Below are positions 4,701 to 8,424 of a stretch of DNA of 8,424 nt, piece by piece; the first letter of the stretch is position 1; every line of letters starts with the position of its first letter. The notes under the pieces were generated by a model. That model had not been told where the DNA came from, did not search any database, and saw only the letters and a program-made list of their open reading frames with translations. The position numbers and the translations under genes are program-made. The stretch comes from Candidatus Heimdallarchaeota archaeon (lineage in GTDB: Archaea > Asgardarchaeota > Heimdallarchaeia > Heimdallarchaeales > Heimdallarchaeaceae). The stretch covers positions 1 to 8,424 of the forward strand of contig DAOVER010000083.1 in the NCBI GenBank assembly GCA_030668875.1, written 5' to 3'.

Positions 4701-6450
4701 AGATTAAAGATACCGATTGAACTCCAGAGCCACCCAAATCATCTATTTTAACTTCAAGATTGGGATTATCCAGATAGCCAATTATAGGAGGAGAATTAAA
4801 ATCTTGAAAAGAGGGACCAGTGTGGTCTCCAATGAAGAAAGAGTGTTCAGGTGAATTCGTTGTGTAACCATGAATATCTTGTGCCTCAAATCTATAAGTT
4901 ACCCAAGTTAAAGGTGATAAGTCAAAAGGAGTAGTATTCAAAGTATAATAATAAAGATGGTCTCCACCTTTAATCATAAGAAATTCATCATAATATTGTG
5001 AACCATTAGAGATCCAAAGATGTAATTTAACATAATTGAGCTGACTAGTGTCATTAACATAAACATAAAGTGTCTGTTCATAAGTATGGCAAATTTGTTC
5101 TTCTCTAAGGTCTTTAATGCCATATAAAACAGGGGGACTTCCATCATTAATGAAAAATCCAGAATAACTAATACAAGATTCCCCATTAATATCAATTGCA
5201 GTAATTGTAAGTACAACACTCTCATTTTCGACAAGAAATTCTGTGGGAACAGTACATGTCCAGATGTTAGTTGTCTCAATATTAGTCAAGGTAAAACTAG
5301 AATCAGAAGTAATACCAGGTATTGAAACAATACAATCTACATATAACACACTTTGATCTGTAACTGTAACATTGATTGAAACAGAATCCCCTTTTCTAAT
5401 CAAGGAAGGGTTGATAACAATACCTGAAATAATGGGTGAATTGTACTCAACTACAGTTTTGAAATAATGGGTGGGTTGTTCAGGATATATATTATAACCG
5501 CTTCCTATGGAATAATTAAATTCTTCCCAATATTCTATAATATCTCCTCCATCTAGAAGAAAACCTTGAAGTGGCTCAGACGTCCAGATTATATCATCGG
5601 TTTGAAATAAAGAGAGAGAATAGATATTACCGCTATTTATTTGATAGTATATCTTACTGGAGTAAATTTCACAGCGATAAAATAAGCTACACTGAAAAGT
5701 TAAATCTAGATTTTCTGTAGCATTGGATGGATCAGTCCAGATTTCCCAGAGATAAGGTGATTCTCCTACTGTAACGTAATAATCTTTTCTTGAAACACCA
5801 GTATGTCCGAGAATGTTAGTAGCTTCAACCCAGTAAGTAACAAGAGTGTGAAAATTATTAGTGCGAGGAATAATCGCTGAATAGGAATTTGTAGTCTGAT
5901 TATAATCTAAAGGAACGAGTGTAGGAGAACTTTGGTTGAATTGATAACACAAATACGAATAATCAATGTCAAGGAGATCAAAAATACGCAGAGAAATTGT
6001 AACATCCTCATCAAATTTTGGTAAAGTAGGATCTCTTTTTATCTCACTAAAAGAAGGAATAAGATGTTCTTTGACTGTATAAGAATAGTTACTTGAGGTC
6101 TGAACATAACCTGTAAGAGATACTGCACGAATGCAGAACACTACAACAGTATCAGTAGGATAAGGGTCAATTTTGTTATAGAATGTGTCAGCATAATAAT
6201 TTTTCATAAATAAAGTATTCCAAGAAGTTTCAGATTCTGATTTAAATACGAGAGATACTTCCTTTAAGCCTTCAGAAAAACTAATGTTTGCATAAACAGT
6301 GACATAATCCTCAGAAGAAGGGGAGGAAGGAGTAAAGACTATATTCGAAATAACAGGAAATAAAGATTGGGCATTCAATAAAACTGAATTATTCAATTGA
6401 AAAGTAAGAAAGACCAATAACAGCACAGTGATTGATTTTTTATATTTCAT
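1771..6450 (-). CDS. 1559-aa membrane-anchored cell-surface (glyco)protein with about 14 tandem Ig-like repeats; adhesin/S-layer-associated type
   Basis: Sec-type signal MKYKKSITVLLLVFLTFQLNNSVLLNA. Repeats of about 100 aa follow the pattern P.I..i...P..p....vti.a.v.D.sG...V.l.y......m.....y...i.......v.y.i.a.D..G. C-terminal TM TYLSIYLICGGAMIGVLSLLIS followed by a basic tail KNLKIGGKKNE. About 22 N-x-S/T sequons by hand count. GGTGA SD upstream. Confidence 0.96.
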   Translation of the reverse strand: MKYKKSITVLLLVFLTFQLNNSVLLNAQSLFPVISNIVFTPSSPSSEDYVTVYANISFSEGLKEVSLVFKSESETSWNTLFMKNYYADTFYNKIDPYPTDTVVVFCIRAVSLTGYVQTSSNYSYTVKEHLIPSFSEIKRDPTLPKFDEDVTISLRIFDLLDIDYSYLCYQFNQSSPTLVPLDYNQTTNSYSAIIPRTNNFHTLVTYWVEATNILGHTGVSRKDYYVTVGESPYLWEIWTDPSNATENLDLTFQCSLFYRCEIYSSKIYYQINSGNIYSLSLFQTDDIIWTSEPLQGFLLDGGDIIEYWEEFNYSIGSGYNIYPEQPTHYFKTVVEYNSPIISGIVINPSLIRKGDSVSINVTVTDQSVLYVDCIVSIPGITSDSSFTLTNIETTNIWTCTVPTEFLVENESVVLTITAIDINGESCISYSGFFINDGSPPVLYGIKDLREEQICHTYEQTLYVYVNDTSQLNYVKLHLWISNGSQYYDEFLMIKGGDHLYYYTLNTTPFDLSPLTWVTYRFEAQDIHGYTTNSPEHSFFIGDHTGPSFQDFNSPPIIGYLDNPNLEVKIDDLGGSGVQSVSLIYSDNGWMTNFSLSLCYVGDYWWSITDIPTLDLNVTREYCFSALDWYGNPSQSFLFNYSTIDIHPPENIDWQLNDVEPIIDTTSNIHVELWLEDPSGIVLTNVNFTFYSLKENQHYKFTLTSVTNGYFHFYVDYAWIAHDYISYYFESEDLLGSSGSSQTYYFTVGDISVPDINPNLSYQGDAWKSIHSLDKDPNNVYSDAWLIDFQHDFTITATVTDETLVEVRLYYGSDTSYSNYLTMIHIGGNSFEVILTSSILTDLYISSVNPSLTHEMLFLKIWAEDNASHISEFYLWNDDSTCFEIYDYTSPLLSNFVIPSSALTGTYPTFELDAADYKTIDVAQLRFSYESTTTTWYDMTLISGDYFDGTWEFSNWQIPYSYDGVISIEFQFIDGDGLIYNLGYWCHKDTDSQSTIDISHSFTAIDSVIPTINNHYVNPSNPEYNEVFRFYVDSVDDCSGIDQIWIEWWKNDVKQTNLNLFNYVDSIYRTDFIGSFSYNTKIQYIVHATDFRGNEATTSQLTFYIEDTVIPVISNVYHSPSPISDLTNYVTVYATVTDSGAGINHVTVKYYRNGYYQNNRYMTLSNGEWSYSIYVGNWNIGDQLKYKIYSYDCAGNSKVTGLYGPFTISDTTPPSISSISRSPSSVYTNDLVTVSATVTDSGSGLNYVRLYHRHTPSGSWSYSYMSYSSGKYYGSFNAFGLAGITDYYYILAKDNSYNYKQSSTYSYTVQQSSGGGGWFQPSMEGQIDTLDILTTYDEGFLIIDKAYLSNIPSNLISSITICYQSLGEPTWHRIYAKDSSSFFFGYIASNTSLQVSFYLEVNLRDENVLISEIYSIELVDLTAPLVYCTYEPFVPNFNDELFFDIFVFDSSGIQEVKCYTSNGTKYSIHSLFEKESNKYSCVHRLQETIRIYFEVIDNNGHSSYSCLFEFIVFNFDESSMMNNNSNWTYLSIYLICGGAMIGVLSLLISKNLKIGGKKNE
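1786..1791 (-). promoter_or_regulatory. Shine-Dalgarno GGAGGT for the gene starting at 1778
   Basis: Minus strand reads GGAGGT-AAAAAAA-ATG, embedded in the last codons (G-G-K-K-N-E-stop) of the upstream gene. Confidence 0.85.
1807..1872 (-). other. C-terminal transmembrane anchor of the 1559-aa protein
   Basis: 22-residue hydrophobic stretch followed by a short Lys-rich tail (positive-inside rule). Confidence 0.85.
1880..6357 (-). repeat. About 14 diverged protein-level Ig-like repeats (not near-identical at DNA level)
   Basis: Repeat starts: PVISNI, PSFSEI, PYLWEI, PIISGI, PPVLYGI, GPSFQD, PPENID, VPDINP, SPLLSN, IPTINN, IPVISN, PPSISSI, a degenerate repeat 13, and APLVYC. The closest pair is repeats 11 and 12 (VTVYATVTDSGAGINHV vs VTVSATVTDSGSGLNYV, 13/17 identical). 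Confidence 0.85.
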
Positions 6451-7061
6451 TTTTTCACCATAAAAAATTGATTTTGGATATTAAATTTAACAAGATTAGA
6501 GGAATTCAAAGAGAGAAATGTAAACCCACTTTTTTTGCCTATTTTGTTCTTACACTCTCTCAATGAATACTCAGCATAAAGGGATAAAAGGAGAAATTTG
6601 ACGAATTTCTTTATACTTGTAAATTTAAGTAAAAATGATCGAAGAGGATACTCATCCCACTGGAATGATAATTTACCCTTCTTGTTCAAGTATCCTCCTC
6701 GAAAAGATTTCTCCTGGGAAAGATGTCGGGTATAGACTTTTTCCACAGGGAGCATGAGAGAGTTCTGTACGCACTGATCTATCTCACATAAGCCAATGTC
6801 TTCCAGGACACGGATGGACTGTTCTCTGGAGAATAACCTTTTCAACCAGAAATTATAGGTAGAAACGTAAGGAGAGAGTATGAGAGAAACCCAAAACCTA
6901 TTTGATGAATGGTTTAGTCTCTTCCATCGCCTCTCAGTTCTCTCCTCTTGCACTGTTTGACGTTTAGGGCGTGCAAGCATGATAGTTGCTTCATATCCCA
7001 AAGGTTTGGATTCAGATGGAAAAACTTCAGTGTGATGAGTTATTGAATTACTACCATTCAT
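6447..7061 (-). CDS. Hypothetical basic protein, 204 aa, putative first gene of the surface-protein operon
   Basis: 204 open codons in AT-rich DNA, an ATGA stop/start overlap with the 1559-aa gene, and a TATA-like box 27 nt upstream of its ATG. Against: no recognisable motif, atypical composition, and an AT-rich intergenic-looking 3' third. Confidence 0.55.
   Translation of the reverse strand: MNGSNSITHHTEVFPSESKPLGYEATIMLARPKRQTVQEERTERRWKRLNHSSNRFWVSLILSPYVSTYNFWLKRLFSREQSIRVLEDIGLCEIDQCVQNSLMLPVEKVYTRHLSQEKSFRGGYLNKKGKLSFQWDEYPLRSFLLKFTSIKKFVKFLLLSLYAEYSLRECKNKIGKKSGFTFLSLNSSNLVKFNIQNQFFMVKK
6455..6459 (-). promoter_or_regulatory. Archaeal-type Shine-Dalgarno GGTGA for the 1559-aa gene
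   Basis: Minus strand reads TGGTGA-AAAA-ATG; similar register to the SD at 1786-1791. Confidence 0.7.
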
Positions 7062-7128: not shown

Positions 7129-7150
7129 CTCTAACATCCTCTAACATTCT
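7129..7150. repeat. 10-bp tandem direct repeat (ctctaacatc/ctctaacatt/ct)
   Basis: About 2.2 copies with one mismatch, in the divergent intergenic region. Confidence 0.6.
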
Positions 7151-7295
7151 AGCTCATCAAAAAGAATCAAACTAATTGGAATAAACACGTAGAATAGTTG
7201 TTTATTGATAATTAGTTTAAAAAAATGAAGTTATTAATAAATTGAAATAGAGCGACACCTATGATTTTTCCCGTTTATTATAAATATAAATTAGA

Positions 7296-7303
7296 TTTAT
7301 AAA
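7296..7303 (+). promoter_or_regulatory. Candidate archaeal TATA box (TTTATAAA) for the ParA-like gene
   Basis: 29 nt upstream of the ATG at 7333, with an A-rich upstream flank and no SD before the ATG. The region is very AT-rich, so a chance match is possible. Confidence 0.5.
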
Positions 7304-7332
7304 TGAAAAATTAATAGAATGTTCATTATACA

Positions 7333-8019
7333 ATGGAGATTATATCTTTAGTGAGTATAGATGAGAAGATTCTTTTCAAAACAAACTATAGTATACAACT
7401 TTATCAACAGTTATCACACAACAAAATTGAACACTGTGTGATCTACAATAATATCAATGATTTATTTCAAGAAAACTATGAGATTGACGTTAAGTTTCTA
7501 TTAGAAGATGTTTTAGATGGAAGATGCACAGTTGAAAAAGTAATCTATCAAGTTTCCAAATATTCCTCTGTTATTTTTACTAAAACAAATCCGATAACTA
7601 AAAGTGAAATCATGCAAAACTATAATCACCTCAACCAAGTTATATCTAGCATTAGGGATACAAATCCTTCAACAGAATTTCTTTTTATAGATTGTCAATC
7701 TAGTTTGAACAACTTATCATTAAATGCCATGATTCTTGCGAAAGTCTCGATTTTTTTCATGGTTTATGATTATTATTCTCTAGAAGTTTTGGAACATTTA
7801 GTTAGAAAAATATATCTTAAACAACCCATTAGTAAAATTCTACTATTATCGTTGGATTTAAGACTAAGAAAGGAATTTGAGAAAAAGAGTTTGAAGGAAA
7901 TAAGCAAAATCATACCCATCTCTGCAATAACAAAAAAGAACCAACTATACATTATTCAAATGGGTGAAATCAGAGAAGAACTGATGAACGCAATTAGGAA
8001 CTCATTTTTATCTTCTTAA
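7333..8019 (+). CDS. ParA/Soj/MinD-family (SIMIBI) protein with degenerate nucleotide-binding motifs; predicted pseudo-ATPase
   Basis: Colinear by-eye matches: EIISLVS..KT (KIIAI..KGGVGKT), LEDVLDGRCTVEKVIY (MinD l.dvl.G...l..ai), FLFIDCQSSLNNLSLNAMILA (Soj YIIIDCPPSLGLLTINALTAS), DYYSLEVLEHL (EYYALEGLSQL), ILLLSLDLR (VLLTMLDAR), KIIP (TVIP). Confidence 0.85.
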   Translation: MEIISLVSIDEKILFKTNYSIQLYQQLSHNKIEHCVIYNNINDLFQENYEIDVKFLLEDVLDGRCTVEKVIYQVSKYSSVIFTKTNPITKSEIMQNYNHLNQVISSIRDTNPSTEFLFIDCQSSLNNLSLNAMILAKVSIFFMVYDYYSLEVLEHLVRKIYLKQPISKILLLSLDLRLRKEFEKKSLKEISKIIPISAITKKNQLYIIQMGEIREELMNAIRNSFLSS

Positions 8020-8025
8020 CATATT

Positions 8026-8289
8026 CTAAACATATAAATCATAAAATAATATAGTCAAAATAAATTCTCTCCTTTTATCGTTACTGTGATGAAAAATATA
8101 TTGAAAGCTTGTTTCCTTTTGATAGGACGTTTCTTTCCTAACAAAATTACTATGTTTATCAACAGCAGTATCTACTTGTTTTAGAATATTACTGAATTCC
8201 TTATTTCTACAGAATTTTATTATGGCAGTTTTGGAATTTCTCCAGTTTTTATAGCTTAATAATTGATCGATTTTTTCTATAAGAAGCAT
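8026..8289 (-). CDS. Hypothetical protein, about 87 aa (start reassigned from GTG 8310 to ATG 8289)
   Basis: GGAGGT SD lies 8 nt upstream of the ATG at 8289. The GTG at 8310 sits inside another SD-like motif. The gene is convergent with the ParA-like gene, with a 6-nt gap between stops. No recognisable domain. Confidence 0.55.
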   Translation of the reverse strand: MLLIEKIDQLLSYKNWRNSKTAIIKFCRNKEFSNILKQVDTAVDKHSNFVRKETSYQKETSFQYIFHHSNDKRREFILTILFYDLYV

Positions 8290-8297
8290 GTCCCAAA

Positions 8298-8314
8298 ACC
8301 TCCTATTCACCTCC
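8298..8314 (-). promoter_or_regulatory. Tandem SD motifs GGAGGTGA (8314-8307) and GGAGGT (8303-8298)
   Basis: Minus strand reads GGAGGTGAATAGGAGGTTTTGGGACATG. Confidence 0.65.
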
Positions 8315-8424
8315 AGAGGGGCTGAGCATACAAAAGAAAGTTGTACCAGAGGAAAGGGCAGAGTAAGGTCTTGAGTTTATTGTTCGTCTTGCGGTCAGAA
8401 ATAGTGAGCGGACGGAGCTTGATT
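8303..8424 (-). other. Possible 3' end of an upstream gene entering from the right edge (frame ambiguous)
   Basis: Two minus-strand frames are open from the edge: ...MLSPSGGE* (TAG 8305-8303) and ...YAQPLWR* (TGA 8309-8307). Too short to decide. GC is about 47% by hand count. Confidence 0.3.

Follow-up and report, generated by a model that had tools for sequence, protein, structure and literature searches.

The protein P0001 is probably a pseudo-ATPase of ParA/MinD (SIMIBI) descent, which lacks the phosphate-binding loop, retains the core motifs of the fold and would work as a nucleotide-blind binding module. Its gene lies in the window, that is, the entire 8,424-bp contig C62 of a 3.23-Mb MAG (99 contigs, 33.8% GC). 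Translation bears out the intact frame of 228 aa at 7333-8019 that a preliminary description of this DNA had reported, and also the motif coordinates given there, the translations matching exactly at all five sites checked; upstream of the ATG, the frame stays open for five codons and no more. An exhaustive scan of 1.84 billion representatives yielded one true relative, P0002 (227 aa, 27% identity, E 1e-17), which is also the sole true homologue among the ~15 billion proteins searched. The gene and its motifs are located as follows.

7333..8019, plus strand: P0001 gene, encoding a P-loop-less ParA/Soj-like protein; intact ORF, 228 aa
7354..7383, plus strand: former deviant Walker A, reads SIDEKILFKT (translation; alignment with intact relatives)
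7441..7452, plus strand: IYNN in place of switch I (DxD), where strand 2 ends (alignment; IISN in P0002)
7678..7704, plus strand: Walker B strand, reads FLFIDCQSS (translation and alignment)
7765..7785, plus strand: YDYYSLE, matching the Soj/ParA-type EYYALEG motif after strand 5 (HMMER alignments to 8ray_B)
7852..7863, plus strand: LDLR, with R177 invariant between P0001 and P0002, three residues before helix 180-193

Sequence matches of P0001 to ParA/MinD are weak but consistent, and confirm that the proteins are homologous. P0001 hits Pfam AAA_31 with an E-value of 3.2e-5 (24.4 bits, under the curated cut-off of 27 bits, which P0002 exceeds with 29.1 bits) and NCBIfam minD_arch with an E-value of 5.4e-5. 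Its top PDB sequence match, the ParA protein 8ray_B, was retrieved by HMMER with an E-value of 7e-4 when the single sequence was used and 5.7e-5 with a two-sequence profile. Beyond P0002, the matches in the HMMER scan of the 1.84 billion representatives were bona fide intact ParA-family proteins (E ~1e-5). The protein language-model features of P0001 fall nearest to BcsQ/MinD/ParA clusters (score 0.95), with BcsQ the nearest, and a comparison with PHROGs gave a weak match to one ParA-like partition family and nothing else.

The AlphaFold2 model of P0001, obtained from an alignment with 11 intact relatives (pLDDT 77, pTM 0.78), has the three-layer alpha/beta fold of MinD and Soj; the alignment behind it included ParA/MinD rows. 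The best 50 Foldseek matches of this model all belong to the same fold group, comprising MinD, Soj, FleN, BcsQ, plasmid ParA, NifH-like Fe proteins and relatives of 'cobyrinic acid a,c-diamide synthase', and VIA-align gave Z-scores of 16.5 for a Borrelia plasmid partition protein, 15.4 for MinD and 15.2 for Soj over 196-211 aligned residues. The structural match to the ParA/MinD family that had been proposed as a check was thus found, in a model that leans on ParA/MinD rows, and the profile, PDB, 1.84-billion scan and fold matches support the earlier description of P0001 as a derivative of the ParA/Soj type. The structural result depends on homology inferred from sequence, because a model with the two family members as the whole alignment failed (pLDDT 39.7, unusable). 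A homodimer prediction for two P0001 copies (alignment A2) scored 0.00, which weighs neither for nor against. By descent, P0001 appears to belong to the ParA/MinD superfamily.

As listed in bioRxiv 10.64898/2026.10.19.760177, the ParA/MinD clade is defined by a deviant Walker A (KGGxGK[ST]), a DhhhhD Walker B, a DxD motif and a degenerate [NT]KxD motif. Since two of these four sequence features, Walker A and DxD, fail in P0001, the protein ought not to be classed with the ParA ATPases. In an alignment of P0001, P0002 and 11 intact relatives (13 rows), E11-K12-I13-L14-F15-K16-T17 of P0001 aligns on K-G-G-x-G-K-T, which means that K16 and T17 are kept while none of the three Gly, nor the signature Lys, survives; the corresponding residues of P0002 are E-K-A-Q-L-K-Q, with Gln at the position of T17. 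Neither protein has the KGGxGK[ST] motif with its extra signature lysine, and just the second Lys is retained. The preliminary reading that the Walker A glycines are gone and the terminal KT is kept agrees with both the translation and the alignment with intact relatives. Seven or eight residues are required for a P-loop, and the Gly that precedes the Lys in GxxxxGK[ST] has to make space for the beta-phosphate. In the P0001 model, helix 1 starts at residue 13, which leaves a four-residue loop at the former P-loop; the position of the Gly before the Lys is taken by a bulky residue (F15 in P0001, L15 in P0002), and no loop Gly is left.

Switch I has changed too, Y38-N39-N40 in P0001 and I-S-N in P0002 replacing DxD, with both switch I Asp gone in both proteins. 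Among the intact rows covering this stretch, nine of ten keep DxD (the exception, L019, reads E-A-D; the fragment P0003 is without the stretch). Given what GxxxxGK[ST] is known to do, the sequence of P0001 makes a loss of nucleotide binding very probable. The Walker B motif DhhhhD on strand 3 is present, as E115-F-L-F-I-D120 in P0001 and D-F-I-I-I-D in P0002, and D120 is the sole invariant column of the 13-row alignment. The earlier statement that every ATPase motif is eroded therefore holds for the Walker A Gly and signature Lys and for DxD, but not for K16, T17 and the Walker B D120. These residues, together with K12, could in principle form a non-canonical site through which P0001 still binds nucleotide, a reading that draws on the retention of the P-loop Lys and Thr and the Walker B Asp and on the conservation of the former active-site segments, which exceeds that of the rest of the protein. 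Against this stand the bulky side chain where Gly must make room for the beta-phosphate, the loop devoid of Gly, the Gln at T17 in P0002 and the loss of both switch I Asp from both proteins, and we consider such a site very unlikely.

Toward the C-terminus, the EYYALEG-type motif of P0001 is conserved in its homologue, where the counterpart of YDYYSLE reads YDDYSM. At the position of the degenerate [NT]KxD motif, LLLSLDLR aligns with gaps in a region of the model with pLDDT 52-56, and S173 may occupy the first N/T. R177 of LDLR may correspond to the Arg through which Soj binds DNA, in an alignment that is ambiguous and gap-dependent, MAFFT setting R177 one column off the Arg of P0003. The equation of LDLR with Soj LDAR made in the preliminary description gains from the conservation of R177 in the sole homologue, but where the gaps are set decides the match, and pLDDT is low there. 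P0001 is also poor in glycine as a whole, its 2 Gly in 228 aa placing it at the 0.15th percentile of ORFs of at least 200 aa in its own genome; P0002 has 4 Gly.

P0001 and P0002 share VSIDEK at the former P-loop as well as K16, their motifs are collinear and both frames are full-length. With six residues, VSIDEK is the longest identical run between them (shuffle p ~0.05, marginal), followed by IDC at Walker B; conservation is thus highest at the former nucleotide site, as judged from two members. Orthologues had been proposed as a check on whether the loss of the P-loop glycines is shared, and the sole homologue indeed has VSIDEK...K; because P0002 carries the same replaced loop, the loss would be old and inherited. 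A third, partial allele comes from a 232-nt contig of a cold-seep metagenome from a different study, which covers 7410-7638 with 34 differences (~85% nucleotide identity). Codon position 3 accounts for 15 of the 27 listed differences, position 1 for 10 and position 2 for 2; they amount to 11 silent and 13 replacement codons, all 13 conservative. The resulting dN/dS is ~0.17, computed on 75 of the 228 codons, with the P-loop outside the covered region and the 7 unlisted differences left out. These comparisons argue for purifying selection on the P0001 family after an ancient loss of the P-loop. On this evidence from alleles and homologue, P0001 is a pseudo-ATPase that is being maintained and no pseudogene in decay, and the earlier verdict that the protein is retained holds, given the same loop in P0002 and conservative replacements only in the partial allele.

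The contrary reading, of a decaying or spurious ORF without function, is highly improbable. It could appeal to the extremely narrow distribution, to the low GC content of the gene (28%, very AT-rich) with its odd, glycine-poor composition, and to the absence of any RNA run among the public runs listed as holding the DNA. It is contradicted by two full-length intact frames that have diverged to 27% identity with collinear motifs, by the dN/dS of the partial third allele, by identical intact copies of P0001 in contigs from three runs (the DNA being present in four runs of that study) and by significant homology to a known fold. That P0001 is a selected, nucleotide-blind protein of the ParA fold we regard as highly likely.

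How such a protein would act is suggested by where its conserved segments lie. In ParA/MinD proteins, one face makes the contacts of the ATP-sandwich dimer and is also where the activating peptide of ParB or MinE docks. The conserved segments VSIDEK, IDC and YD-YS-LE of the P0001 family would sit on that dimer/peptide face, which is the reason for proposing that either a ParA/MinD-type protein or a ParB-like peptide may dock onto P0001; a partner of the ParA/MinD or ParB type is a tentative suggestion. P0001 would need no nucleotide switch; its binding would be constitutive, and it would engage its partner through this face, most likely as a cap, decoy or adaptor, perhaps with residual DNA affinity conferred by R177 and the basic residues after it. 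We infer a scaffold, cap or decoy role from these considerations.

Searches with the protein or a profile found no relatives of P0001 in 23 other genomes of the genus, in 45 other genomes of the order or in 81 of the class, and phmmer found no paralogue in its own genome. Scans of genomes, metagenomes and viral contigs, as well as word-indexed searches with the protein or the two-row profile, gave no more family members. In the Heimdallarchaeaceae, P0001 is accessory and very rare; it lies in a variable region, and a core role in cell biology is unlikely, because the gene is rare, accessory and was not found in the 23 same-genus genomes searched. P0002 comes from a different Heimdallarchaeaceae genus, the flanks on its contig being 88-89% identical to genomes of that genus. 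Within these flanks, L011:24-567 and L011:2454-2640 show 77-91% identity to different contigs of four genomes (G040, G041, G021 and G011), and the matching stretch of G040 has no ORF of at least 70 aa; the flanks may be repeated or mobile sequences.

The context of P0001 is variable and island-like. The features that surround the gene in the window are the following.

6447-7061, minus strand: 204-aa ORF heading the surface-protein operon, its stop overlapping the start of the 1559-aa gene
7296..7303, plus strand: TATA-like octamer TTTATAAA, 30-37 nt 5' of the P0001 ATG (sequence only)
8026..8284, minus strand: 3' part of a convergent PDC-S54-like candidate defence gene (PADLOC)
8284..8424, minus strand: terminus of an IS5-like insertion sequence present in several copies, spanning the contig's final 141 bases

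Upstream, a 271-bp spacer separates the P0001 gene from a divergent operon of giant surface proteins, which consists of the 204-aa ORF, a 1559-aa Ig-repeat protein and a protein of 597 aa or longer. The 204-aa ORF matches nothing in Pfam or NCBIfam, nor in the 23 other genomes of the genus, and has 36.7% GC compared with 24-33% around it. By analogy with FlhG, TadZ/CpaE and BcsQ, P0001 might be a localisation factor for this operon, with which it shares the divergent spacer. There are ParA/MinD relatives with a role in placing envelope machines, the structural matches include FleN, FlhG and BcsQ, and the language-model features of P0001 lie nearest to BcsQ clusters. Such a role is nonetheless doubtful in the extreme: the pairing is not conserved, the neighbours of P0002 being unrelated, the 204-aa ORF is itself without homologues in those genomes, and the known positioning factors use an ATP switch or at least bind nucleotide.

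Downstream, the convergent neighbour is complete (398 aa) in another contig of the same study (L013:1038-2231 (-)), where the whole protein matches PDC-S54 with an E-value of 2.5e-104 and an ABC transporter pair comes after the gene. PDC-S54 occurs in 2 of 82 genomes of the class, the window's own being one. A PDC-S54 copy in genome G049 carries a C-terminal D...E-C-K nuclease-like motif; the window's neighbour reads E-C-A at this place, and may be missing the presumed catalytic Lys. A literature search on PDC-S54 found nothing. The terminal IS5-like sequence is 99% identical to G000:C83:38825-38965 and 86% identical to C2:13375-13236, and the C2 copy of the element encloses a 312-aa DDE-transposase-like ORF (the transposase call having been made by eye). 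Read depth over this end is 86-138, compared with 22 elsewhere. After base 8284, the window departs from three independent same-study contigs (L013-L015), and because all three run past this point into the intact gene, the junction would be an assembly join or else an insertion carried by a minority. Nothing relevant came out of searching the window for Rfam families and tRNAs.

P0002 is flanked by an ORF without matches and, downstream, by a small transmembrane protein with an nSTAND3-like P-loop. Two candidate pairs of shared neighbours were discarded for want of similarity, namely the 204-aa ORF of the window with a 251-aa ORF of the P0002 contig, and the 398-aa protein with a 247-aa protein of that contig. 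P0001 and P0002 thus have no neighbour in common, so that context indicates no partner. No gene for a ParB-like or other centromere-binding protein was found in the window, L013 or L011, and the sole ParB_N protein of the genome lies on contig C29, in line with the earlier remark that no parB is visible in the window. A ParABS system takes an adjacent parB or other centromere-binding protein and a centromere, and neither shows at P0001.

The candidate defence gene next to P0001 suggests another role, that of an anti-mobile-element factor: a nucleotide-blind Soj-type ParA of a defence island that would interfere, by itself or together with the PDC-S54-like gene, with the partition machinery of invading plasmids or viruses or with their DNA. 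P0001 stands tail-to-tail with this sporadic PDC-S54 candidate and beside an IS element, and its presence is patchy and strain-specific, as is typical of defence genes. Moreover, an nSTAND3-like NTPase adjoins P0002, and no Soj-type ParA was found in the host genome. Repeated recruitment of ParA into immunity, with standalone ParAs proposed to interfere with the segregation of rival elements, is described in the accessible part of Li, Burroughs and Aravind (bioRxiv 10.64898/2026.10.19.760177), but the immune ParAs presented there keep an active P-loop. P0001 and the PDC-S54-like gene are convergent, and so do not form an operon; PDC-S54 is a single-gene candidate, the G049 copy of which has no ParA-like ORF within the 3.2 kb examined; and PADLOC matches neither P0001 nor P0002, which share no neighbour. 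Taken together, we judge this role unlikely. Decoy immunity by a pseudo-enzyme, in which an ATP-independent, locked P0001 would cap the ParA of an invader or sequester its ParB or DNA, thereby blocking plasmid or virus segregation, is quite improbable; if true, it would be an immunity mechanism built on a pseudo-enzyme.

The genome of P0001 (G000) encodes intact ParA/MinD-like paralogues on contigs C40 (at 106.8 kb and 42.8 kb), C3 (59.6 kb) and C20 (1.0 kb), which are conserved across the genus, some of them in a fixed operon. In contrast to P0001 and P0002, which occupy a long separate stem, the intact Asgard paralogues all keep the P-loop, as (K/R)GGxGK(T/S) or, in the L018 paralogue, EGGTGKT. 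P0001 and P0002 score higher against a Soj-type profile (51.9 and 26.5 bits, respectively) than against the MinD-like paralogues of the host, in whose genome no ORF with both a P-loop and an EYYALEG-type motif was found. In the tree, P0001 and P0002 pair with support of 100/99 on a stem of 1.64 changes per site and join the Soj-type rows weakly (76/83). The Soj-type rows had been selected as the best matches of P0001, which biases both the profile comparison and the tree; P0001 may originate from a Soj-type ParA, as these sequence comparisons weakly favour.

A conserved operon of the genus (L033 G000:C3:54500-62500, L031 G005:C76 and L032 G019:C194) contains genes for an ABC ATPase, an ABC2 permease, a 370-430-aa protein, an active ParA/MinD-like protein (268 aa, P-loop SYRGGTGKS) and a ~440-aa protein. 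The ABC pair near P0001 in L013 is a paralogue of the ABC pairs of this operon (44-49% identity). Descent of P0001 from such a host ABC-X-ParA operon was considered and rejected, the nearest relative of the adjoining ABC pair (G019:C4) being without a downstream ParA. Likewise, no relationship was found between the PDC-S54-like protein and the 370-430-aa partners of the active ParA paralogues of the host.

Among characterised proteins, P0001 most resembles the partition ATPases of the Soj/ParA type (8ray; H. pylori Soj 6iub/8jmj; Borrelia 3k9g/5tvk), with which it shares a size of ~230-260 aa, collinear secondary structure, the Walker B sequence 'hhhhD-C-x-x-S-L', the 'NA(l/m)' motif and the 'EYYALEG'-type motif (YDYYSLE in P0001), and which provide both its top PDB sequence match and its best structural matches (Z 15-16.5). 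Unlike these, P0001 reads DEKILFKT in place of KGGxGKT, is without DxD and has no ParB- or centromere-like partner nearby; to judge by its motifs, it should be incapable of serving as an ATP-driven switch. P0004, one of the nearest intact relatives and annotated as 'ParA family protein' in a Promethearchaeota MAG, belongs to the same superfamily and host lineage and has 28% identity to P0001 over residues 38-163.

Degenerate MinD/ParA domains of the TadZ/CpaE type have an N-terminal receiver-like domain, are encoded in pilus or envelope operons and in many cases still bind ATP. They resemble P0001 in using the MinD/ParA fold as a scaffold, with catalysis weakened or lost, whereas P0001 is a bare domain with the entire P-loop replaced. 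Inactive ParA homologues have also been described next to T7SS by Li, Burroughs and Aravind (bioRxiv 10.64898/2026.10.19.760177). As described there, those homologues are bacterial (Gram-positive) and tied to a conserved T7SS neighbourhood, whereas P0001 is archaeal, standalone and without a conserved neighbourhood, the two groups being set apart here by description, not by sequences. A literature search on ParA/MinD as 'pseudo-ATPase' found nothing. Pseudo-NTPases of the ParA/MinD fold are thus already recognised, and the P0001 family adds to them a standalone archaeal form in which the whole loop is replaced.

ParA and MinD proteins are the textbook example of nucleotide switches, used to position DNA and cell machinery. 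The P0001 family would show what their fold does without the switch, and could serve as a natural 'locked' variant for studying the binding of ParA partners. The cell biology of the Heimdall-group Asgard archaea is of interest for the origin of eukaryotes; as a rare accessory gene, P0001 says little on core Asgard biology. Its location beside a candidate defence gene fits the proposal, in bioRxiv 10.64898/2026.10.19.760177, that ParA is reused in immunity, a link of position only.

Finally, the octamer TTTATAAA is a possible archaeal promoter for a P0001 transcript with little or no leader. The gene had earlier been credited with its own promoter; this single TATA-like octamer speaks for the claim, but it is weak evidence, and its weight is low because the spacer has 24% GC. 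The spacer upstream of P0001 contains no notable repeats, just short AT-rich palindromes and one 10-nt tandem pair (CTCTAACATC / CTCTAACATT, window positions 7129-7148). A 9-nt inverted repeat (7143-7151 and 7315-7323) encloses most of the divergent spacer, and, like the tandem pair, it may be a product of chance in such AT-rich DNA.
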